Shown: positions 17,890 through 36,048 of the stretch, in pieces | How the letters are laid out: each line of letters starts with the position of its first letter | Position numbering within the stretch: position 1 is the first letter of the stretch | Source of the DNA: a virus | Strand: one strand, 5' to 3' | Virus record (IMG/VR): IMGVR_UViG_3300045988_030305 | Length of the DNA stretch: 36,048 nucleotides | Notes under the pieces: model-generated | Databases searched by the model: none | What the model saw: only the letters and a program-made list of their open reading frames with translations | What the model was told of the DNA's origin: nothing | Position numbers and translations under genes: made by a program

Positions 17890-18228
17890 TCAAAGCTTAT
17901 CCAGCGCAGCGAGGTCGAGGAAGGTCTGTCGCGTGAAGCCGTAGTCCTTCGGTGCCGGTGCCGGTTCTTCCTGCCGTCTGATCTCCTCGCGGGTCTTCGG
18001 CGGTGCGTTCAGCTCCGCGCGCAGCCGCGCCCGCTCTTCCGGCGAGCGCTTGTCTTTCACTCTGTCGAACTCGATCTCCGTCAGCTCCCCGCGGAAACCA
18101 CAGATGCCGCACGCGCCCCGGCCCCCGCGCTGGCGGATGGGCGGGATGTCGTGCAGGGTGAACAGCGTGTTTAGCTTCCGGTAGCAATCTGTGCACAGAT
18201 GATCGTAAACCATGTTGCTTTTCTTCAT
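17890..18228 (-). CDS. Zinc-ribbon-like hypothetical protein (112 aa)
   Basis: Two CxxC pairs (CTDC, CGIC). ATGA overlap with the upstream gene. Confidence 0.6.
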   Translation of the reverse strand: MKKSNMVYDHLCTDCYRKLNTLFTLHDIPPIRQRGGRGACGICGFRGELTEIEFDRVKDKRSPEERARLRAELNAPPKTREEIRRQEEPAPAPKDYGFTRQTFLDLAALDKL

Positions 18229-19052
18229 GTCTCGCTCCTTTCTGCGGCGGGCTCTCCGCCGCTGCTGCTTATGTCTGCTGCTTTCTTCTCCGGCAGGATG
18301 TAACGGATGTACTGAGGTGCGCCGCGCTTATACTCTGCGCGCTGAATGAGCTTGCAGTTGCGGGGCACTCTGATCTCGGCGTCGCTCACGGCTACGCGGT
18401 CTTTCGGCTGCGGGCGGATGAGATTGCGGGACGATACGAACTTCTTTGCGTTGAGTGCCCCGCGCACCTGAGCTATCAGGTACTCTGCTATCGGCATATA
18501 ATCCTCCTGCTTGCTCAGGGGCTTGCAGTACGTGCCGCCGTGTCCCCACTTCATGCGGACGATGTGCTCGCATGAGGCCGGGACTATCAGGTGATGATGA
18601 ACGCGCACGGTCTCCTTTGTGTCGCCGTCCATGTCGGATGTGATTGCTATGTACTTGAGCTCATCGGCGCGGTCTTCCTTTTCGAGGGCACGCTTCACCC
18701 GGCGGAGATAGTTCACCATCTCCTGGGCAGCAGCTTCACGGATGCAGCGCAGCTGATCCTCTTCGGGCAGGCTGTCATAATCCGGGGCAACTTTCCGGGC
18801 GGAGCGTTCGAGCTTCTTGTATGAGGCATCGGAGTAGTCAAGGCCAAGAAGGATATCTCCGTGTGTAAAGTTCGCATTGATGAGACGGGCAAGGCGCTTC
18901 TTCGTGGAGTATTCATTCTGCTCCTGCTTCTTGATGCTGGATTCTTCCTTGCGTCTGTTGCGCCGGGTGCGATCACCGAGGACGAAGTACTTCGTCTTCT
19001 CGCCGACCTGCCCGGCTTCGTATGTTCTGACTACCCAATATCCGTCTTTCAT
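18225..19052 (-). CDS. Hypothetical protein with HUH-endonuclease-like motifs (candidate rolling-circle Rep or relaxase-like; 275 aa)
   Basis: Motif-like strings occur in the canonical order: ILLGLDYS, RVHHHLIVP, IAEYLIAQV. AGAGGAG SD. Confidence 0.35.
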   Translation of the reverse strand: MKDGYWVVRTYEAGQVGEKTKYFVLGDRTRRNRRKEESSIKKQEQNEYSTKKRLARLINANFTHGDILLGLDYSDASYKKLERSARKVAPDYDSLPEEDQLRCIREAAAQEMVNYLRRVKRALEKEDRADELKYIAITSDMDGDTKETVRVHHHLIVPASCEHIVRMKWGHGGTYCKPLSKQEDYMPIAEYLIAQVRGALNAKKFVSSRNLIRPQPKDRVAVSDAEIRVPRNCKLIQRAEYKRGAPQYIRYILPEKKAADISSSGGEPAAERSET

Positions 19053-29603: not shown

Positions 29604-30719
29604 ATGAAATGCCGGAAATGTAAAAAGGAGATTCCTGACATCAGCGCGTACTGCCTATATTGCGGTGCAAAGCAGGAGATCGCTCAAACGCGCAGAGGGC
29701 GCGGCAACGGCCAAGGGACGGCATATAAACGCGGGCGCACGTGGACGGCCATGTGGACGTGTGAGACGTTCGTGGACGCCTCCGGGAATCTGCACCAGCG
29801 GCGCAGCACAAAAGGCGGCTTCCCGTCCAAGACAGCGGCGCTGGCCTTTGCCGCGAATCCGGTCGAGGTTCAGGCAAAAGATGCTTACCGCCCCACGCTC
29901 AACGACTATTACAAGGGGTGGTCTACCAGCGCCTATAACGCACTGTCGAAGTCAAAGCAGTGTGCGTATGATATCGCGTGGAAACGCATGGAGGCGCTGA
30001 AGAATGTCCCCATGCTCGATTTGACAATCAACAATCTGCAAAGCTGCGTCGATTCTCAAGTCGAAACGTTTTACCCTGCGCGGGATATGAAAACGCTTTT
30101 CTCGCAGCTGTATAAACGTGCCGTCGCTGAGGGGCAGGCGCGGACGAATCTCGCTGAGTTTATCGAGCTTCCGCCGCTGGAGGAGACCGAACAGAAGCCA
30201 TTCTCGGAAGATGAGATAAAAGCCCTGTGGAAAGCTTACGACGGCGGTGACAAATTTATTGCTTTCCCGCTCCTGATGATTTATAGCGGCATGATGCCTG
30301 GAGAGCTGCTGCGCTGCACCTCCGACATGATCCACACCGATACGCACGAGATTATCGGCTGCGGTCTGAAAACCAAAAAGCGAAAAGAAACGCCGCTGAT
30401 TTATCCTGACTGGCTCGGCCCGCTCGTGCTGGATATTCTCTCCAACGTTAAAAGCCAAAAAGGCTATATCGTCGGCATGAACGCGGATAATTTCTATACC
30501 GAGTATCACGCCGCACTCGCTCGGGCAAAGGTGCGTGACCTGCCGCCTTATTCATGCCGGCATACCACGGCAACAGCGCTCGCTCTGGCCAAGACTGCGC
30601 CGAGTTTGATTCAGGAGATCATGCGTCACACGAAGTTCTCCACGACGCAGCGGTATATCCATCCCGACATGCAGAGTGCCCACAACGCTATCAACGTCCT
30701 CGACAAAGGCGCTGAGTGA
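29604..30719 (+). CDS. int: Tyrosine integrase with an N-terminal zinc ribbon (371 aa)
   Basis: The N-terminus is MKCRKCKKEIPDISAYCLYCG. The C-terminal catalytic region contains CRHTTAT and IMRHTKFSTTQRYIH. Confidence 0.9.
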   Translation: MKCRKCKKEIPDISAYCLYCGAKQEIAQTRRGRGNGQGTAYKRGRTWTAMWTCETFVDASGNLHQRRSTKGGFPSKTAALAFAANPVEVQAKDAYRPTLNDYYKGWSTSAYNALSKSKQCAYDIAWKRMEALKNVPMLDLTINNLQSCVDSQVETFYPARDMKTLFSQLYKRAVAEGQARTNLAEFIELPPLEETEQKPFSEDEIKALWKAYDGGDKFIAFPLLMIYSGMMPGELLRCTSDMIHTDTHEIIGCGLKTKKRKETPLIYPDWLGPLVLDILSNVKSQKGYIVGMNADNFYTEYHAALARAKVRDLPPYSCRHTTATALALAKTAPSLIQEIMRHTKFSTTQRYIHPDMQSAHNAINVLDKGAE

Positions 30720-30746
30720 CGCCGAGATCGCCCGTCAAAATTCCCC

Positions 30747-30840
30747 GCGTAGCTAACAAATTCAGGGGAATTTCGGTTTCAATATGGCCTGTAAAGTGTC
30801 GAAAAACGTATTCGCGTAGCTTACAAAATAGCCTACAAAA
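30747..30840 (+). repeat. attP P-arm: three direct arm-type repeats (consensus GTAGCYTACAAA)
   Basis: GCGTAGCTAACAAA at 30747-60, GCGTAGCTTACAAA at 30814-27 and TAGCCTACAAAA at 30829-40. Confidence 0.7.
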
Positions 30841-30910
30841 TCCCGCAAACGCCTGAAAAATCAAGGGGTTTCTCGCCCCTGCTAAGGGAGTAGGTGTCTA
30901 AAAAGCACGC

Positions 30911-30938
30911 GAGGGTTCAAATCCCTCCTTCTGCGCCA
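30911..30938 (+). other. tRNA 3' fragment (T-arm, acceptor 3' strand and CCA): attP core
   Basis: GAGGG-TTCAAAT-CCCTC CTTCTGC G CCA. No matching 5' acceptor strand (GCAGAAG or GCGGAAG) lies upstream, so this is not a complete tRNA. Confidence 0.75.
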
Positions 30939-30985
30939 AAGATACCGAAAATCGTTAAAAATGGCGATTTTCGGTATCTTTTTTG
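30939..30985 (+). terminator. Rho-independent terminator immediately after the tRNA fragment
   Basis: Perfect 16-bp stem AAGATACCGAAAATCG-(10 nt)-CGATTTTCGGTATCTT followed by TTTT. Confidence 0.85.
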
Positions 30986-31064
30986 TTGTTTTCATTTTGT
31001 TTTTGGGCTTCCAGTTTCCTGCGAAAGTGCTAAAAAATTACAACGCGGCTCGGCACGTTTCAAT

Positions 31065-31090
31065 GCGTAGCCTACATCGTAGCCTACAAA
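31065..31090 (+). repeat. attP P'-arm: two direct arm-type repeats
   Basis: GCGTAGCCTACA at 31065-76 and CGTAGCCTACAAA at 31078-90, in the same orientation as the P-arm copies. Confidence 0.7.
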
Positions 31091-31092
31091 TT

Positions 31093-31449
31093 TTACAGTT
31101 CCCGGAGACGCCGCATGACCGCGCTATAGGTGCGGGGCTGCATCACCTGCAGGCTTTCCATGAGTTCATCCATGATTTTCCACGCCGCGCCCGCATCTTT
31201 CCCGCTCACCGCCATTAAAAAATCGCTGTCCGCGGCATCTACGACTACAGTGTTCTGCTGTATGTGCATCTCAGTCGGGGCAGCTGCCCTTGAATAGAGC
31301 CGCTCATATCGCGGCTCTATTCTTTCGTCGGATTTCTTCATTTCGGCGCGGATCACATACAGGTTGGCGAGCTTGGCATAGTTCGGATAGCTTGACTCTT
31401 CATACTCGAGGCGGGCTATCTCTTTATTGATCTCCTGCGTGTCGAGCAT
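31093..31449 (-). CDS. Accessory-cluster protein, hypothetical (118 aa)
   Basis: GGGAGGGAG SD. The product is MLDTQEINKEIARLEYEESSYPNYAKLANLY...WKIMDELMESLQVMQPRTYSAVMRRL. Confidence 0.6.
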   Translation of the reverse strand: MLDTQEINKEIARLEYEESSYPNYAKLANLYVIRAEMKKSDERIEPRYERLYSRAAAPTEMHIQQNTVVVDAADSDFLMAVSGKDAGAAWKIMDELMESLQVMQPRTYSAVMRRLREL

Positions 31450-31464
31450 AAGAACTCCCTCCCG

Positions 31465-31845
31465 TCAGCTGTCGAGCTCGTTCATGCAGCGGCGGATAGC
31501 CTCGCGAGTGCGATCGTCGTCAGCGTCCCGCATCATGTCCTCCATCTGTGAACGCATGCGCTCGCGGGCGTCGGTGCGGCTGTAGTGGCCGCGTACATAG
31601 TGCTGTCCGCGGTGGGCGTAGCTGCTGCCGCGCCCGTAGCGTCCGCGCATATCCGCCTCCCATTCACCCGCGCGACTATAACCGCCGTCTTCTTCGTACA
31701 TCTCTATCTTGTAGATGTTTTTCACGGTGTCGGTCAGCTTATGGACGATGTCAAGATCGCCCGCTCCAAGTTCGGGCTTCTTTGCGATCTCGTCAAGCTC
31801 TCGGCAGAGCTTCTCGCAAATGTCTTCAAGTGCTCTTGTGCTCAT
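31465..31845 (-). CDS. Accessory-cluster protein, hypothetical (126 aa; helical ends, Arg/Gly/Tyr-rich centre)
   Basis: GAAAGGAG SD. The centre contains ...GEWEADMRGRYGRGSSYAHRGQHYVRGHYSR... Confidence 0.6.
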   Translation of the reverse strand: MSTRALEDICEKLCRELDEIAKKPELGAGDLDIVHKLTDTVKNIYKIEMYEEDGGYSRAGEWEADMRGRYGRGSSYAHRGQHYVRGHYSRTDARERMRSQMEDMMRDADDDRTREAIRRCMNELDS

Positions 31846-31857
31846 GGTTTACTCCTT

Positions 31858-32280
31858 TCATGCGACACGCTCAACTATGAGGTTGGCGTTCGCGAAATTG
31901 ATAGCCTGCCCGCTGGTGTTCTCCACCGCTACGGTGAGGCAGCAGCCGCGCGGGACGTCGATGTTTGCGGCGACGTATATATTGCCGTACTGATCGACTG
32001 CAGCAGGCGTGACAATGCCTGTGGCGCTGTTCAGAGGTTCGCCGTTGACGGCTATCGCCGCCGAGATCGCGCCGACGGTGCCGCCGGTCGGCAGGGCGAT
32101 ATTAGCCCCGAACGAAACCTTGAACCGCGCGCGGCACTGGTTCGTCAGGCCGCGGAGCGTTACGATGCCCGCTCCCTCGCGATGGACGATGCAGGGGTTA
32201 CCGGATACCGTCTCCTCGGTAAACGGGACATTCTGCCCCGCTGCGACGGTCGTAGTGTTTGCATTTGTGTATTCAGCCAT
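31858..32280 (-). CDS. Accessory-cluster protein with beta-rich, BclA-C-terminal/C1q-like character (140 aa from the ATG at 32280)
   Basis: The product runs MAEYTNANTTTVAAGQNVPF...FKVSFGANIALPTGGTVGAISAAIAVNGEPL...VPRGCCLTVAVENTS...ANANLIVERVA. The start is ambiguous (track GTG at 32307). Confidence 0.5.
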   Translation of the reverse strand: MAEYTNANTTTVAAGQNVPFTEETVSGNPCIVHREGAGIVTLRGLTNQCRARFKVSFGANIALPTGGTVGAISAAIAVNGEPLNSATGIVTPAAVDQYGNIYVAANIDVPRGCCLTVAVENTSGQAINFANANLIVERVA

Positions 32281-32298
32281 TTTTCTATTCATCCTTTC

Positions 32299-32330
32299 AA
32301 AAAGCACGGCGAGGCATTAAGCCCCGCCGT
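32299..32330 (-). terminator. Rho-independent terminator inside the accessory cluster
   Basis: The minus-strand RNA reads ACGGCGGGGC-UUAAU-GCCUCGCCGU followed by GCUUUUUG. Confidence 0.7.
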
Positions 32331-32398
32331 TTGTGTTGATATCAGCTCATGGGGCTGAACATGTCGATTATTCCGACAAGTTGAGCGCTATGCTGTTG

Positions 32399-33118
32399 TC
32401 AGCCAACACCGCAGCAGCTACCGTAGGCAGCTGACGCCCACGGGTTGCAAGTGATGTACGCCGGAGCAGGAGCCGGACGGAGCGTCGAAACAAGGTAGTT
32501 GTTCTGCGCAGCCTGAGATGCGGCCAGCTTCAGGCTGGCGTTCTCGGCTTCCAGATCCCTCATCTTGCTGCTCTGGAGATAGTCCAGGATAGCTCTGCTG
32601 TTGGCGTTCTGGTTGTCGATGATGTCGCGGGTAGCGTTCTGCACGGTGTTGCGCGTGTCGCAGGCCTGAGTAGCCATGTCGTAGCGCACCTGCGCTATCG
32701 CCTCGCGATTCTGGCAGCAGCAATCAGAGATCGACTGCTGCAGCGCGAAGAACTGCTGCATGAACGTCATCTGAGCGTTGCATCTCGCTACCTCCGCCGC
32801 TGAGAATCCAGCGTTGACCGCCTGGGTGACCCCGGCAAAGCCGTTGAGCATCCCGGTGTTCATCGCGTAGAAGCCATCACAGATGCCGTTATTGACACTG
32901 TCGAGCTTGCGCTCGACGTTCGCAAAGTCGGACGTGAGGACGTAGCCGTCCATCACACCTCCATTATTGCCGCCCCAGCCGTTACCGCCCCAGCCGAACG
33001 CAGCGAGGAAAAACAGGATGACGATCCAGAACAGACCGCCGCCCCAGCCGAAGCCGTCGCCGTTCGAGTTGGCAGGAGTCACCGGCATGGTAAAGGGAAC
33101 GTTATCGGAAAGACTCAT
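32399..33118 (-). CDS. Accessory-cluster membrane protein (239 aa): Gly/Trp-rich N-terminus with one TM, Gln/Asn-rich helical body with a CCC motif, Cys-rich C-terminus
   Basis: AAAGGAGAA SD. The product contains GFGWGGGLFWIVILFFLAAFGWGGNGWGGNNGG...QQSISDCCCQNREAIAQVRYDMATQAC...ITCNPWASAAYGSCCGVG. Confidence 0.65.
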   Translation of the reverse strand: MSLSDNVPFTMPVTPANSNGDGFGWGGGLFWIVILFFLAAFGWGGNGWGGNNGGVMDGYVLTSDFANVERKLDSVNNGICDGFYAMNTGMLNGFAGVTQAVNAGFSAAEVARCNAQMTFMQQFFALQQSISDCCCQNREAIAQVRYDMATQACDTRNTVQNATRDIIDNQNANSRAILDYLQSSKMRDLEAENASLKLAASQAAQNNYLVSTLRPAPAPAYITCNPWASAAYGSCCGVG

Positions 33119-33157
33119 TTTGTGTTTTCTCCTTTCGGAATTTTTTAATTTATCTTA

Positions 33158-33171
33158 ATCGTGGCCACGAT
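33158..33171. promoter_or_regulatory. Perfect 14-bp palindrome ATCGTGGCCACGAT upstream of 32399..33118
   Basis: Read directly. It lies in the 58-nt gap between two accessory genes. Confidence 0.5.
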
Positions 33172-33176
33172 ATAGA

Positions 33177-33410
33177 TTACTTGAGGAACTGCATGAACTG
33201 CTGCGCGAGTCCCTGCACCTGATTGAGCTGCTGCTGGGATATTCTCCCGCTCTGCAAGAGTTTCTCCACTTCCTGCCTTGGGTCTCCCTGAAAGGTCGTG
33301 CGGAATCGCTGAAACTTCTGCATCATGTTCTGGAACTGTCCGGCCATGCCGGGCATCCGCGGCGCAGCCTGCTGTGCGCCGCCGAGTGCCTGAAAAATTG
33401 AATTACTCAT
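33177..33410 (-). CDS. Accessory-cluster Gln-rich small protein (77 aa from the ATG at 33410)
   Basis: The product is MSNSIFQALGG...QNMMQKFQRFRTTFQGDPRQEVEKLLQSGRISQQQLNQVQGLAQQFMQFLK. There is an AATGAGTAA overlap with the upstream stop. Confidence 0.55.
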   Translation of the reverse strand: MSNSIFQALGGAQQAAPRMPGMAGQFQNMMQKFQRFRTTFQGDPRQEVEKLLQSGRISQQQLNQVQGLAQQFMQFLK

Positions 33411-33876
33411 TTGCCGTAGCCTCCTCACTCTGCGTCTTGCGCTGTTTCTTGGCCGTCAGCGCCGCCACCTGCGCCGCCAGCGCATCAAACTCCGCACGGG
33501 GTACGTATTCAACGTTCTGCGGCTGCGACGCCGCTACGGGCGCCTGTGACGGCTGTGTGCGCTCCGTGTAATCAAAGATGCGCAGCGGCAGCGGCATCCC
33601 GCTCTGATCTGCGCTCTTAATGCAGAAAGTCGGATTTTCGCTGTCGAACAGCAAAACGCTATTTCCGGCAGCAACCAGGAACGCTTTCATCCCTGCCTCG
33701 CCCTGTACCCAGTTCACGCCGCCCTGCTGTGTGGCTGCGGGCGTGGGTGCCGGCTGCTGGGGCTGCGGAGCGTACTGCTGGGCGCGCATCTGCGCGAGGT
33801 TATCCATCATCGGTGGATTGTAAGCCGGGTAAAACTGCTGTGGCTGATATGCTGGGAACTGTGGAGAATAATTCAT
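33403..33876 (-). CDS. Accessory-cluster protein with a Gln/Pro/Tyr-rich N-terminus and a small beta domain (157 aa from the ATG at 33876)
   Basis: GGAAGGAG SD and an ATGA overlap with the upstream stop. The product is MNYSPQFPAYQPQQFYPAYNPP...GVNWVQGEAGMKAFLVAAGNSVLLFDSENPTFCIKSADQSGMPLPLRIFDY. Confidence 0.6.
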   Translation of the reverse strand: MNYSPQFPAYQPQQFYPAYNPPMMDNLAQMRAQQYAPQPQQPAPTPAATQQGGVNWVQGEAGMKAFLVAAGNSVLLFDSENPTFCIKSADQSGMPLPLRIFDYTERTQPSQAPVAASQPQNVEYVPRAEFDALAAQVAALTAKKQRKTQSEEATANE

Positions 33877-34253
33877 GATTTCTGCTCCTTCCATACATAC
33901 AACGGGATTTCATCGCCTGAATCCCACGCGTCAAAATAGTTGCCGTCCTGCACCGCTACGACGTGTCCGCTCAGGGCGAGGATATACGTGCCGCGTGGGT
34001 GCTCTTCCGAGAAGAGCTTCACCGTGTAGCACTCCGGGCATTTATCGGGAAGCGCCGTGCGCGTGTAGCCTTTCCTGTGGAGATAAGCGCCCCACACTGC
34101 ATTTGCGCTCGGCATATCCGACAGCTCGAAGCCTGTCACGGCCAGCTCAACAAAGGTCTTGTCCCAGCTTTCCCCCGTGGCCTTGCACAACGCCCTGATC
34201 ACGCAATCACCAACCGAGTGTCCCGCTGGGTTAGGGTTAAAATGTACATACAT
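33873..34253 (-). CDS. Putative papain-like cysteine peptidase-fold protein (126 aa from the ATG at 34253)
   Basis: Cys, His and Asp candidates are in the canonical order: VGDCVIRA ... LSGHVVAVQDGNYFDAWDSGD. The start is ambiguous (GTG 34262, ATG 34259 or ATG 34253). Confidence 0.45.
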   Translation of the reverse strand: MYVHFNPNPAGHSVGDCVIRALCKATGESWDKTFVELAVTGFELSDMPSANAVWGAYLHRKGYTRTALPDKCPECYTVKLFSEEHPRGTYILALSGHVVAVQDGNYFDAWDSGDEIPLYVWKEQKS

Positions 34254-34286
34254 GCGCATCACCTTTTTCTGCTTAAATTCTAAGAT

Positions 34287-34319
34287 AAAAAAGGGCAGGT
34301 AACATGTCCGTTACCTGCC
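34287..34319 (-). terminator. Strong rho-independent terminator after the HTH regulator gene
   Basis: The minus-strand RNA reads GGCAGGUAAC-GGACAU-GUUACCUGCC followed by CUUUUUUAU. Confidence 0.85.
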
Positions 34320-34355
34320 GGGAATCTGTCAGTAATCTGTCTCTGGATATATGAA

Positions 34356-34380
34356 AGAGCGGCGCATAGCGCGCCGCTCT
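34356..34380 (-). terminator. GC-rich hairpin overlapping the regulator stop (weak T-tract)
   Basis: AGAGCGGCGC-(5 nt)-GCGCCGCTCT followed by TTCATATAT on the minus strand. Confidence 0.45.
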
Positions 34381-34624
34381 AAATCGTTTCCGCTATTTTA
34401 TTCTTAATGCTCCGGATGCGCCGGTTTATCGTCTCCACGCTGCAGTTCTGCCTGCTGGCAATCTCCAGCAGTGATAAACCGTCAGCCCTCATATTCAGAA
34501 TCGCTTTCTCTTCGATTGTGAAGCCGCACTCGGCTATGAATTTTTCACGGAGTGCCGTTGGGAATTGCAGTTTTGCCTTCTTGCCGGGGGTCGTCAGATC
34601 GGATAACGCGTCTATCGGTATCAC
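34379..34624 (-). CDS. Small sigma-70 region-4 / LuxR-like HTH protein (81 aa as called; may be the C-terminal part of a longer product)
   Basis: TIEEKAILNMRADGLSLLEIASRQNCSVETINRRIRSIKNKI. The GTG start has no SD. Confidence 0.6.
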   Translation of the reverse strand: MIPIDALSDLTTPGKKAKLQFPTALREKFIAECGFTIEEKAILNMRADGLSLLEIASRQNCSVETINRRIRSIKNKIAETI

Positions 34625-34718
34625 CGCCAGTCAGAGCAGAGAAAAGCAGCTCTGTAAGATTTTCTGATTTTTCATCAATGCCGTTGATCCGGCAAAATTC
34701 TTTGACGGTTGCAGTCAC
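34545..34718 (-). CDS. Upstream overlapping ORF (57 aa) with a good SD; possibly the true N-terminus of the HTH protein
   Basis: GAGAGG lies 7 nt upstream of the GTG at 34718. The product is VTATVKEFCRINGIDEKSENLTELLFSALTGG... and overlaps 34379..34624 by 80 nt in the -1 frame. Confidence 0.4.
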   Translation of the reverse strand: MTATVKEFCRINGIDEKSENLTELLFSALTGGDTDRRVIRSDDPRQEGKTAIPNGTP

Positions 34719-34830: not shown

Positions 34831-35328
34831 TTATTCGTTCTGAGTTTCGTCAGCCTCGATTATTTCAACGGGCGGCTCGTGATCTGAATCTATCTTGTCT
34901 TTATAATTTCTGAGCCACTTCTTAAGCCATTCCGGGATAGGCGCGCCGAGCTTTCCTGCATTCTCAATGATGCTGCCGAGCTCCGTTATTATGTACCAGA
35001 GCAGCACGACCGGAGTTATAAGCGTCCCGAACGTTATGCCGATATCTATGCCGGCTCCGTTGATAATTACACTAATTGCTATATCGCAGAGCGCCGCCAC
35101 AAGCACGGCGACGATCTCGCCCAGCTTGTGCCACAGTCCCGCTCTCGCTACGGCGGACGACCAGTCCCCGGCGCTCTTCGCGGCCCAGGTTCCCGTAGCA
35201 TAGTCGAGGACTATACAGGCGATCCAGATGATTACTGCCCAGCCGACCCAGCCCCACAATGCTGTGAGGAAGGCTATCGCTGCAACAATCCACGCCTTGA
35301 ACTGTAAGGCTTTGTCAGGTGCATTCAT
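34831..35328 (-). CDS. Holin (phage_holin_4_1 / toxin-secretion-lysis holin type, 165 aa)
   Basis: There are three or four hydrophobic segments. The motifs DYATG...SS.ARAGLWHK and WYIITELGSIIENAGKLGAPIPEWL are typical of this family. GAAGGAGAA SD. Confidence 0.8.
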   Translation of the reverse strand: MNAPDKALQFKAWIVAAIAFLTALWGWVGWAVIIWIACIVLDYATGTWAAKSAGDWSSAVARAGLWHKLGEIVAVLVAALCDIAISVIINGAGIDIGITFGTLITPVVLLWYIITELGSIIENAGKLGAPIPEWLKKWLRNYKDKIDSDHEPPVEIIEADETQNE

Positions 35329-35421: not shown

Positions 35422-36048
35422 TCACCTCCCCACTATGCTTTTGTACGTGTCTTTCCCGCAGATACCGTCAGCTTCAAGGCCGTGCTCTGCCTGATAGGCC
35501 ATTAGCATATTGCGCGTCCTGGTTCCAAACTCGCCGTCGATCCACTTAGGATCATAGCCGAGATACTTCAGCGCCGCCTGAAGCATAGCGACGACTACGC
35601 CGGTCTGTCCGTCCTCCAGCATGGGCAGCTCGACGGTGACATAGCGTGTCGGTTTCTTCGCGGCAGGCACCGTGTCCGGTTCTGCTCCGGTGTACCTGAG
35701 TACACAGTCCCACGGATAGTTGTAGTACCCGCGTGTGTATATCTCGCGCCCGGTCTGGTCGCCGGTTCGGCCTCCGGTCGTAGTGCCATATTCGTTGATG
35801 CTTGCCTGCACGAGCTGTCCGCCGCCGATATACAGGGCGGTGTGATGCACGTGGTTTAAGAGCACATCCCCGCGCTCAAGCCCCGCGCCGGTCGAGAGAT
35901 CAACGCTGCCGGTCACGTCCTCAAAGCCGCAGCGCAGCATATCCCCGCGCATATTGCCCGTGTATGTGCAGTTAAGGGGCAGTCCCGCTCTCTTGAAGCA
36001 GTCTATTACAAGGCTGCTGCAATCATAGTCAGGCCCCCAACGGTTTGC
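35422..36048 (-). CDS. Endolysin, C-terminal part: NlpC/P60 His region plus peptidoglycan-binding repeat
   Basis: The track product contains HHTALYIGGGQLVQAS and a PG_binding_1-like segment LQAALKYLGYDPKWIDGEFGTRTRNMLMAYQAEHGLEADGICGKDTY. The full protein is 232 aa once the junction is joined. Confidence 0.85.
   Translation of the reverse strand, partial: ANRWGPDYDCSSLVIDCFKRAGLPLNCTYTGNMRGDMLRCGFEDVTGSVDLSTGAGLERGDVLLNHVHHTALYIGGGQLVQASINEYGTTTGGRTGDQTGREIYTRGYYNYPWDCVLRYTGAEPDTVPAAKKPTRYVTVELPMLEDGQTGVVVAMLQAALKYLGYDPKWIDGEFGTRTRNMLMAYQAEHGLEADGICGKDTYKSIVGR
35930..36048. repeat. Terminal direct repeat copy 2 (circular closure overlap)
   Basis: This segment is identical to 1-119. Confidence 0.95.

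Follow-up and report, generated by a model that had tools for sequence, protein, structure and literature searches.

The 36,048-nt IMG/VR record IMGVR_UViG_3300045988_030305 (hereafter the window, meaning this whole stretch of DNA) is the genome of a temperate phage in which nearly all genes lie on the minus strand. Between its lysis cassette and its attP site is a cluster of minus-strand genes (31093-34718) that makes up about 10% of the genome. We show that this cluster is a conserved module, exchanged horizontally among phages of Clostridia, which sits where the lysis genes give way to lysogeny or early genes. The gene order [HTH]-CH129-QP157-Q77-TM239-B140-RGY126-(H118), where HTH is a gene for a helix-turn-helix protein, was found in essentially all of >150 loci, down to ∼36% identity in TM239. 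The genes and signals that an earlier reading of the sequence alone had placed between the lysis cassette and attP are all present (Table 1).

Loci carrying the module were examined in two sets. The first contains 86 loci (L001-L086), of which 80 came from genome contigs in a scan of one genome per species and six had been fetched earlier. The second contains 80 loci from IMG/VR. Gene order in the genome scan was determined with iterated hidden Markov models (HMMs) on six-frame open reading frames (ORFs). The genome-scan loci were almost all binned to Oscillospiraceae, Lachnospiraceae, Acutalibacteraceae, Ruminococcus and other Clostridia. In the IMG/VR set 57/80 loci hold all seven genes downstream of HTH, in order, and the module was found on at least 576 IMG/VR contigs. 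Co-occurrence of the genes is far beyond chance. The sequence-only reading had suggested that several of these proteins recur together in gut Firmicutes, and the same order in 86 + 80 loci bears this out very strongly.

The core of the module is HTH81-QP157-TM239, in which QP157 and TM239 are universal, while CH129, Q77, B140, RGY126 and H118 are optional. QP157, the universal partner of TM239, was found as 81 ORFs among the 86 loci of the first set. HTH homologues of ∼70-80 amino acids (aa) at the equivalent position account for 48 ORFs of related loci, RGY126 for 61, and H118 for 20, the last gene every time. One branch has CH129 after RGY126. A minimal branch consists of HTH-QP157-TM239 followed by a ∼130-aa protein (weak phrog_31654) and a ∼260-aa protein whose C-terminal half is Pfam DUF7841; examples are L026 (4054-5208), L037 (8537-9729) and L056 (8662-9920). 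These two proteins may replace B140, RGY126 and H118.

The immediate upstream neighbours of the module belong to unrelated lysis types (Amidase_2, CHAP, NlpC/P60, M23, M15, ELLD and holin families 1, 4_1 and 5_2). Immediately downstream are tyrosine or serine recombinases, CI/Cro-type repressors, and host genes such as MnmE, SmpB and YmdB. The position between the lysis genes and att was seen in the window, in Dulem virus 33, in the prophages L003-L006, and in the neighbour statistics. Using tblastn, the holin, endolysin and tail proteins of the window were found only in its seven closest loci (L007-L011, L091 and L113); the remaining >150 loci share module proteins only, at 40-78% identity. 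L113 has the same lysis cassette as the window (99% and 94% identity), yet it contains only HTH-QP157-TM239, and therefore the other genes are dispensable and variants are swapped. Within a locus, TM239 has often diverged further than B140 and RGY126, as in L022 (44% identity vs 74% and 72%). Because the module is shared across unrelated backbones, it is best described as an exchangeable cassette that is better conserved than the backbone and has dispensable outer genes.

Genes are also inserted at the internal boundaries of the module or behind it. Dulem virus 33 has an opposite-strand endonuclease gene between Q77 and TM239 (L001 9743-10294), phage Ceridwen has a 264-aa gene between B140 and RGY126 (L087 10109-10903), and an HNH endonuclease follows the minimal module in L017 (9804-10634).

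The module was also found in cultured phages. A tblastn search of GenBank phages identified TM239 in Butyrivibrio virus Ceridwen and in five Clostridium perfringens phages, CPD1, XP41-N3, HMD-PC1, CPQ4 and PMQ04. Butyrivibrio fibrisolvens, the host of Ceridwen, is non-sporulating. Behind its lysis genes Ceridwen carries HTH, a terminator, CH129, QP157, Q77, the dyad described below, TM239, B140, the 264-aa insert, RGY126 and H118. Lytic growth alone was observed for this phage, and its authors judged it virulent despite a pair of XRE repressor and antirepressor genes (PMC7372960). The full set in Ceridwen shows that the module is not restricted to temperate phages or spore-formers, and it weakens both the spore-coat and the lysogenic-conversion readings. 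In CPD1 the HTH gene follows the holin, and QP157 and TM239 are among small genes that precede those for recombination and replication. Cultured systems open to direct tests include Ceridwen with its host strain B. fibrisolvens DSM 3071 and C. perfringens phages, CPD1 among them; module prophages are present in cultured Agathobaculum desmolans ATCC 43058 and Enterocloster hominis CLA-SR-H021.

The module contains its own regulatory signals, as had been proposed, and these are conserved across relatives. They divide it into three units: the HTH gene with its terminator; CH129-QP157-Q77, the dyad with an A/T box, and TM239 with its terminator; and B140-RGY126-H118. The third unit is reachable solely by read-through. 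Two terminators had been described after the HTH gene, and both hairpins are there; the T run of one of them is short. Hairpin 1 was read from the sequence, the terminator scan having omitted it owing to its short T run. A terminator follows the HTH gene in 31/41 related loci as compared with 32/240 control windows (13%), and one is annotated at this place in Ceridwen too. A terminator follows TM239 in 42/80 related loci, where the stem sequences are quite different.

The 14-bp perfect palindrome that had been noted upstream of TM239 is present, and its position is conserved across relatives. Most loci have a dyad or stem-loop 28-40 nt upstream of the TM239 start, with an A/T box (ATAAAT or GTAAATA) within a few bases. 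The dyad was evaluated by comparing inverted repeats in each sequence with shuffles. The best perfect stem before TM239 has a mean of 6.17 bp vs 4.65 ± 0.11 in shuffles, and stems of at least 6 bp occur in 69% of loci vs 18% of shuffles. Ceridwen also carries the dyad. The centres can be identical while the arms differ: AGCGTACGG occurs with ACCGAG, AATCAAG or CCGGGG, and GGTGCACA with AATCGG, AACAGC or ACCG. RNAalifold found no structure in a MAFFT alignment of the element, in which the hairpins were misaligned, and the copy in the window, as RNA, folds no better than shuffles (z -0.65). Taken alone the palindrome is not significant, as the window has three of its kind vs 2.6 expected, and a second copy of ATCGTGGCCACGAT was not found in the window. 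The other two 14-bp perfect palindromes are at 18187-18200 (ATCTGTGCACAGAT) and 18982-18995 (ACGAAGTACTTCGT).

The regulator gene encodes 81 aa, of which ∼70 aa are conserved. The earlier assignment to helix-turn-helix proteins of the LuxR (GerE) or sigma region 4 type holds, as HTH81 passes the Pfam GerE model (PF00196) marginally, with 23.9 bits vs a cut-off of 23.5. It scores 23.5 with Sigma70_r4_2 (cut-off 25.7), is likewise under the cut-off of HTH_38, and is matched weakly by PHROG sigma-factor families. A complete sigma factor was rejected: HTH81 lacks region 2 (-10 recognition and core binding) and matches only the last 40-50 positions of sigma models. A small ORF in another frame, orf57, overlaps the HTH gene and is limited to the closest relatives (L007-L011), where it may represent either a small gene specific to this lineage or a piece of the leader. 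We considered and rejected a longer, frameshifted sigma-like protein made of orf57 and HTH81. The homologues elsewhere are single ORFs of ∼70 aa and orf57 is confined to L007-L011, and therefore no frameshift is needed.

TM239, the core protein, is a large family: clustering at 90% identity gives >8000 clusters, 1621 representatives remain at 50%, and individual sequences recur on >600 contigs. Its hydrophobic segment (residues 23-41, KD19 2.04) is flanked on both sides by uncharged Gly/Trp-rich stretches. It is followed by an N/Q-rich helical domain, a CCC motif, and a tail that is first Pro-rich and then Cys-rich at the C-terminus. TM239 alone among the module proteins has a transmembrane-like segment, and no module product has a signal peptide. 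Read together, these features show products that are predicted to stay in the cytoplasm or bound to the membrane, with TM239 the only one that could insert into it. Surface display, which had been suggested for the cluster, is unlikely since every product lacks a signal peptide. QP157 has a low-complexity N-terminus rich in Gln, Pro and Tyr, a small β domain, and a charged C-terminal helix, as judged from the family alignment. Q77 is a basic helical protein (77 aa, 23% Gln, pI 11.5).

Two similarities of TM239 were rejected. Like a spanin, it has an N-terminal transmembrane-like segment and a helical domain. However, its hosts, as Clostridia, are monoderm, neither a lipoprotein partner nor a signal peptide is present, and the hydrophobic period of the helical region is 3.6-3.67, not 3.5. 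A TM239 profile also gave many weak, mutually dependent matches to influenza HA2, in the region of its fusion peptide and first helix, with E values of 0.08-0.3, below significance. These matches, covering residues ∼37-120, are probably compositional, reflecting the Gly/Trp-rich segment and the N/Q-rich helix.

CH129 had been described as a protein with a papain-like fold and a Cys-His-Asp triad, and the structural evidence agrees. The triad (C17, H97 and D108) is invariant in 85 sequences, as are N6, N8, D16 and R20, and the AlphaFold2 (AF2) model has a pLDDT of 94.3. The best Foldseek match in the PDB is a weak one to Josephin-2 (6pgv_A, probability 0.90, TM 0.52, E 0.057), and further weak matches are to papain-like proteins, the MCF effector and USP-type enzymes. 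CH129 shares with the papain-like (clan CA) and Josephin enzymes the α/β topology, a Cys at the N-terminus of a helix, and a His-Asp pair on a β sheet. It differs in that the fold match is weak and that, at 126 aa, it is below the size of known members; it belongs to no Pfam or NCBIfam family. A protease, isopeptidase, transglutaminase or acyltransferase chemistry is possible.

Lone relatives of CH129 were observed in the early regions of large virulent Tsamsa-like Bacillus phages and of Geobacillus phage GBK2. The GBK2 copy (L089 5983-6372) is next to RecE/RecT. In the Tsamsa-like phages, including Tsamsa itself (gp15, L090 3971-4366), the relative is near a kinase and an ocr-like gene, and some copies are annotated as 'putative peptidase'. 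Further members were seen in the ∼540-kb Lak megaphages of Prevotella. Lone copies in early regions fit an enzyme directed at host or phage, not a structural role.

B140 had been likened to the C-terminal domain (CTD) of BclA and to C1q, and this likeness is sustained at the level of fold. The AF2 model is a ten-strand jelly roll (pLDDT 91.3), and the sequence has a conserved CC motif. The top Foldseek matches in the PDB (TM 0.65-0.77, probability 1.0, E from 4e-7) are ExsF (9h3d), the F-BclA CTD (9h38), ExsFA (7r1m), BxpB (8d02) and BclA (1wck). The next neighbours are TNF ligands and phage fibre tips, such as the phi812 spike knob and the A-1(L) short fibre. Structural relatives in BFVD are uncharacterised or called 'BclA protein', with tail fibre and fibritin matches too, and are labelled as metagenomic phages of sipho-, myo- and podovirus type. 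Folds of this TNF/C1q kind are also common in giant-virus proteins. The AF2 model shows no N-terminal shaft or anchoring domain. No sequence match to BclA/ExsFA or any coat family was detected in Pfam, NCBIfam or the PDB, using either the single sequence or a 35-sequence profile.

The comparison with the exosporium proteins ExsF, ExsFA, BxpB and the BclA CTD thus has two sides. B140 is, as they are, a stand-alone domain of ∼140 aa with the same jelly roll and no signal peptide, and its neighbours include a protease-like gene and another whose product has a Pro-rich terminus, recalling BclA cleavage and leader docking. However, sequence homology is undetectable, there is no collagen-like partner, and B140 is encoded by phages, including a phage of a non-sporulating host. 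The cleft of the ExsF trimer is the docking site of a Pro-rich leader peptide (PMC12357932). By analogy the Pro-rich tail of TM239 was considered as a ligand of B140. The tail is found in 39/41 loci with B140 and in 23/35 loci without it; as the motif occurs with or without B140, docking is not supported. Of the two genes behind B140, RGY126 has helical N- and C-terminal parts around a low-complexity core of variable length, rich in Arg, Gly, Tyr, Ser and Asp (family alignment), and the helical H118 has no family match in Pfam, PHROG or NCBIfam.

Searches against known systems returned little. No module protein except HTH81 had a match in Pfam, NCBIfam, PADLOC or PDB sequences, the last searched with phmmer for three proteins and with hmmsearch using profiles of six families. 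Six of the eight proteins fall in PHROG families (3754, 21718, 22984, 16490, 20016 and 28802), all annotated 'unknown function', and PHROGs holds no record of the six families as one syntenic module. We found no description of the module in the literature. Apart from generic folds, the module shows none of the features that define known lysis, defence, virion or coat systems, and it was provisionally rated as lying outside these kinds.

The closest parallel is with the moron and exclusion cassettes found between lysin and attR in temperate Firmicutes phages. The lysis-att junction is a known hot spot for accessory genes in temperate phages, and a promoter upstream with a terminator downstream is the layout used to define morons. 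The module shares the position; TM239 lies between a promoter-like dyad with A/T box and a terminator; and the module is dispensable and exchanged among backbones. It is unlike morons in having seven to eight genes in a fixed order conserved to ∼36% identity in hundreds of phages, in its phage-like base composition, and in occurring in a phage reported as virulent. Nor does it encode a toxin or a secreted product, or any exclusion or defence family that is known. A sporadic moron, as the site had suggested, does not describe genes held in fixed order in phages with otherwise unrelated backbones.

For the function of the module we tentatively favour an autonomously regulated, membrane-anchored intracellular accessory system that would serve the phage in conflict with others, either through superinfection exclusion or through a membrane effect of the abortive type. 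With low confidence, we propose that it assembles on the cytoplasmic membrane during infection or lysogeny. A dimer of HTH81 at the dyad, placed where a -35 element would be, would control TM239 output. TM239 would be an abundant putative membrane anchor or effector with QP157 bound to it. The B140 trimer, RGY126 and H118 would form an optional peripheral sub-complex, and CH129 might cleave or de-conjugate a component or a target. This proposal was ranked ahead of the others because of the hot-spot position, the insulation by terminators, the module's own regulator and the bracketing of TM239 as in morons, and also because of dispensability, variant swapping and the faster divergence of TM239, which fits a specificity determinant under conflict. 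The Cys-rich proteins, the absent signal peptides, the single transmembrane-like segment, the conserved gene order and the lone CH129 relatives were counted on the same side.

Several observations weigh against a conflict system. As the sequence-only reading had noted, no known defence system matches: every PADLOC-DB 2.0 match has an E value of 0.0017 or worse, and these are scattered over unrelated models. None of the module families is known to have an exclusion or defence phenotype, and low-complexity proteins rich in Gln, Pro and Tyr or in Arg, Gly and Tyr, together with a TNF-fold trimer, are atypical of known defence systems. A scan of the window found no sigma-70 consensus promoter. CH129 and B140 start right behind terminator T runs, where a promoter would hardly fit. 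Unless antitermination operates they require read-through, and late transcripts extended in one of these two ways may be their only source of expression. Conserved loops with covarying stems favour an RNA hairpin rather than an HTH operator, although the centres are themselves palindromic, which makes an operator for a dimeric HTH protein possible. Finally, the full module is present in the virulent-reported Ceridwen, and the module also occurs in plate-isolated C. perfringens phages.

A very-late lytic function is, in our view, almost as likely as phage conflict, though itself doubtful. The module would be expressed by read-through or antitermination after the lysis genes, and its products would act at the membrane or envelope at or after lysis; help in egress, protection of progeny from debris, and a protein matrix released with virions are possible roles. 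The module is always directly behind holin or endolysin genes of whatever type, and it is present in the virulent-reported Ceridwen and in C. perfringens phages isolated from plaques. Read-through is the simplest way to express CH129 and B140, whose Shine-Dalgarno sequences directly follow T runs, and the terminator after TM239 would set a high TM239:B140 ratio, like operons of major and minor subunits. Products without signal peptides would be freed by lysis. However, the module is dispensable and swapped between the near-identical backbones of L113 and the window, and it has its own HTH gene and strong insulating terminators, neither of which is usual for lysis accessory genes. Monoderm hosts need no spanin-type step, for which a lipoprotein partner would also be missing, and in CPD1 the core genes are ∼3 kb from the holin among early-type small genes. 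Clearly less probable than either is the earlier proposal of a lysogenic-conversion module for the spore coat, exosporium or surface, acting in the mother-cell cytoplasm under a GerE-like regulator. The proposal draws on the structural closeness of B140 to ExsF/ExsFA/BxpB and the BclA CTD, the free-standing GerE/LuxR-type regulator, the attP-adjacent position, and Clostridia hosts of which many form spores. Coat and exosporium proteins are Cys-rich, rich in Gln, Tyr and Gly, and made without signal peptides, as are the module proteins, and the tail of TM239 recalls the leader that docks on ExsF. Against this, Ceridwen, reported as virulent, has the whole module on a host that does not sporulate, and Ruminococcus bicirculans, Subdoligranulum, Agathobaculum and Faecalibacterium are among the hosts assigned to loci by binning. 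Sequence searches show no relation to BclA_C, ExsFA or any coat family, the fold is common in phage fibre tips and giant-virus proteins, and the Pro-rich tail is present irrespective of B140. Resemblance in fold is the sole footing of the spore-coat idea.

Virion accessory proteins, with B140 as a decoration or fibre-tip trimer and TM239 as a membrane-active ejection protein encoded outside the structural block, are slightly less credible again. TNF/C1q-type domains do cap many phage fibres (phi812, A-1(L), and the tail fibre and fibritin matches in BFVD), the module runs in the same direction as the late genes, and its products have no signal peptide. However, B140 lacks a shaft or anchoring domain, and the lysis cassette and terminators separate the module from the structural genes. 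The module is also found on backbones with no lysis or tail protein in common with the window, structural relatives of B140 are labelled as phages of sipho-, myo- and podovirus type, B140, RGY126 and H118 are missing from a minimal variant on the same backbone, and the low-complexity proteins would be unusual in virions. We find it hard to credit, and rank lower, a phage-encoded kit for a cross-linked, exosporium-like protein layer inside the cell. In such a kit TM239 would be the abundant, Cys-rich membrane anchor, B140 an ExsFA-like trimeric node, and QP157, Q77 and RGY126 the low-complexity matrix, with CH129 as processing or cross-linking enzyme and HTH81 switching on a very-late class after the lysis genes. 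If this were true, the layer would form a coat on forespores, or progeny virions would be enclosed in an occlusion-like matrix that protects them outside the host, giving a bacterial-virus analogue of the very-late genes of baculoviruses, or a means of hitch-hiking on spores. An independent mobile element lodged in the phage, either a satellite or a small integrated virus, is the most improbable of all. The module is compact, in one orientation, equipped with its own regulator and terminators, and common to unrelated phages. We rejected this candidate, however, as Pfam, PHROG and NCBIfam searches found no replication, integration or packaging gene of its own, a repeat search of the window found no flanking repeats, its place relative to the lysis genes is constant, and its G+C content (0.56-0.59) is similar to the remainder of the window.

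Whichever function applies, few unassigned gene sets are as widespread as this module in phages that infect Oscillospiraceae, Lachnospiraceae and other gut Clostridia. As it is better conserved than the adjoining lysis and tail genes, it must confer a strong and general advantage. Its role, once found, would annotate thousands of 'hypothetical' genes and could reveal a new class of phage-phage conflict, a new late step of infection in Gram-positive anaerobes, or a link between phages and the spore surface.

Table 1. Features of the module and its surroundings in the window, in the direction of transcription of the module.
Feature	Position	Strand	Description
Endolysin	35422-35952	minus	Upstream lysis cassette; Pfam ELLD and PG_binding_1
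Holin	34831-35328	minus	Upstream lysis cassette; Phage_holin_4_1, E 7e-33
orf57	34545-34718	minus	57-aa ORF in another frame, overlaps HTH gene by 80 nt
HTH81	34379-34624	minus	Free-standing sigma-70 region 4 / LuxR(GerE)-type HTH; first module gene
Hairpin 1	34357-34379	minus	Directly after HTH stop codon; 9-bp perfect stem GAGCGGCGC/GCGCCGCTC, 5-nt loop, short T run
Terminator 2	34294-34319	minus	After HTH gene; 11-pair stem and T run, ∼40 nt before CH129 start
CH129	33873-34253	minus	Minimal papain-like protein, Cys-His-Asp triad; phrog_3754, E 4e-32
QP157	33403-33876	minus	phrog_21718, E 8e-31
Q77	33177-33410	minus	phrog_22984, E 1e-20
Palindrome	33158-33171		14-bp perfect palindrome ATCGTGGCCACGAT, then TAAGATAAAT; local form of the conserved dyad and A/T box
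TM239	32399-33118	minus	Core protein of module; phrog_16490, E 4e-45
Terminator after TM239	32306-32330	minus	Directly after TM239; strong; B140 Shine-Dalgarno follows T run
B140	31858-32280	minus	Stand-alone TNF/C1q-type jelly roll; phrog_20016, E 2e-57
RGY126	31465-31845	minus	phrog_28802, E 4e-8
H118	31093-31449	minus	Helical, optional; last gene of module
Terminator-like hairpin	31042-31059	minus	After H118, ahead of attP core
attP arm repeats	30814-30839 and 31065-31090		
Tyrosine integrase ORF	29604-30719	plus	
attP region and integrase, overall	29604-31090	plus	

The details of the layout agree with what had been read from the sequence. A Shine-Dalgarno sequence precedes each module gene, and the genes for CH129 and QP157 overlap by ATGA and those for QP157 and Q77 by AATGAGTAA. 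The cluster ends at attP, as the last module gene stops 3 nt short of the arm repeat at 31065-31090. No RNA family was found inside the module using Rfam. The attP core holds the final ∼30 nt of tmRNA (ssrA) at ∼30909-30937, CCA end included. This end comprises the T arm, acceptor stem and CCA end of ssrA (positions 346-363 of Rfam RF00023). Immediately after it is a perfect stem of 17-20 bp with a T run; the whole region, at 30909-30981 on the plus strand, would rebuild the ssrA 3′ end and terminator upon integration. SmpB is among the downstream genes in related prophages.

A few loci had unusual surroundings. In L010 and L011 the module occurs twice, near both ends of one 46.7-kb contig (CAVEPP010000001.1) binned to Alloprevotella. 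This contig is probably a circular phage genome with a terminal duplication in the wrong bin, and other bins outside Clostridia (Collinsella, Paludibacteraceae and Staphylococcaceae) may be similar artefacts. The prophages L003-L006 (1-1991) are very common and have a TM239 that is 73% identical; a few genes upstream of their CHAP endolysin are polyvalent proteins of 2269-2588 aa, containing MuF_C with ART-PolyVal or PBECR5. ORFs of 1800-2100 aa are directly upstream of the module in L035, L042, L058 and L078.

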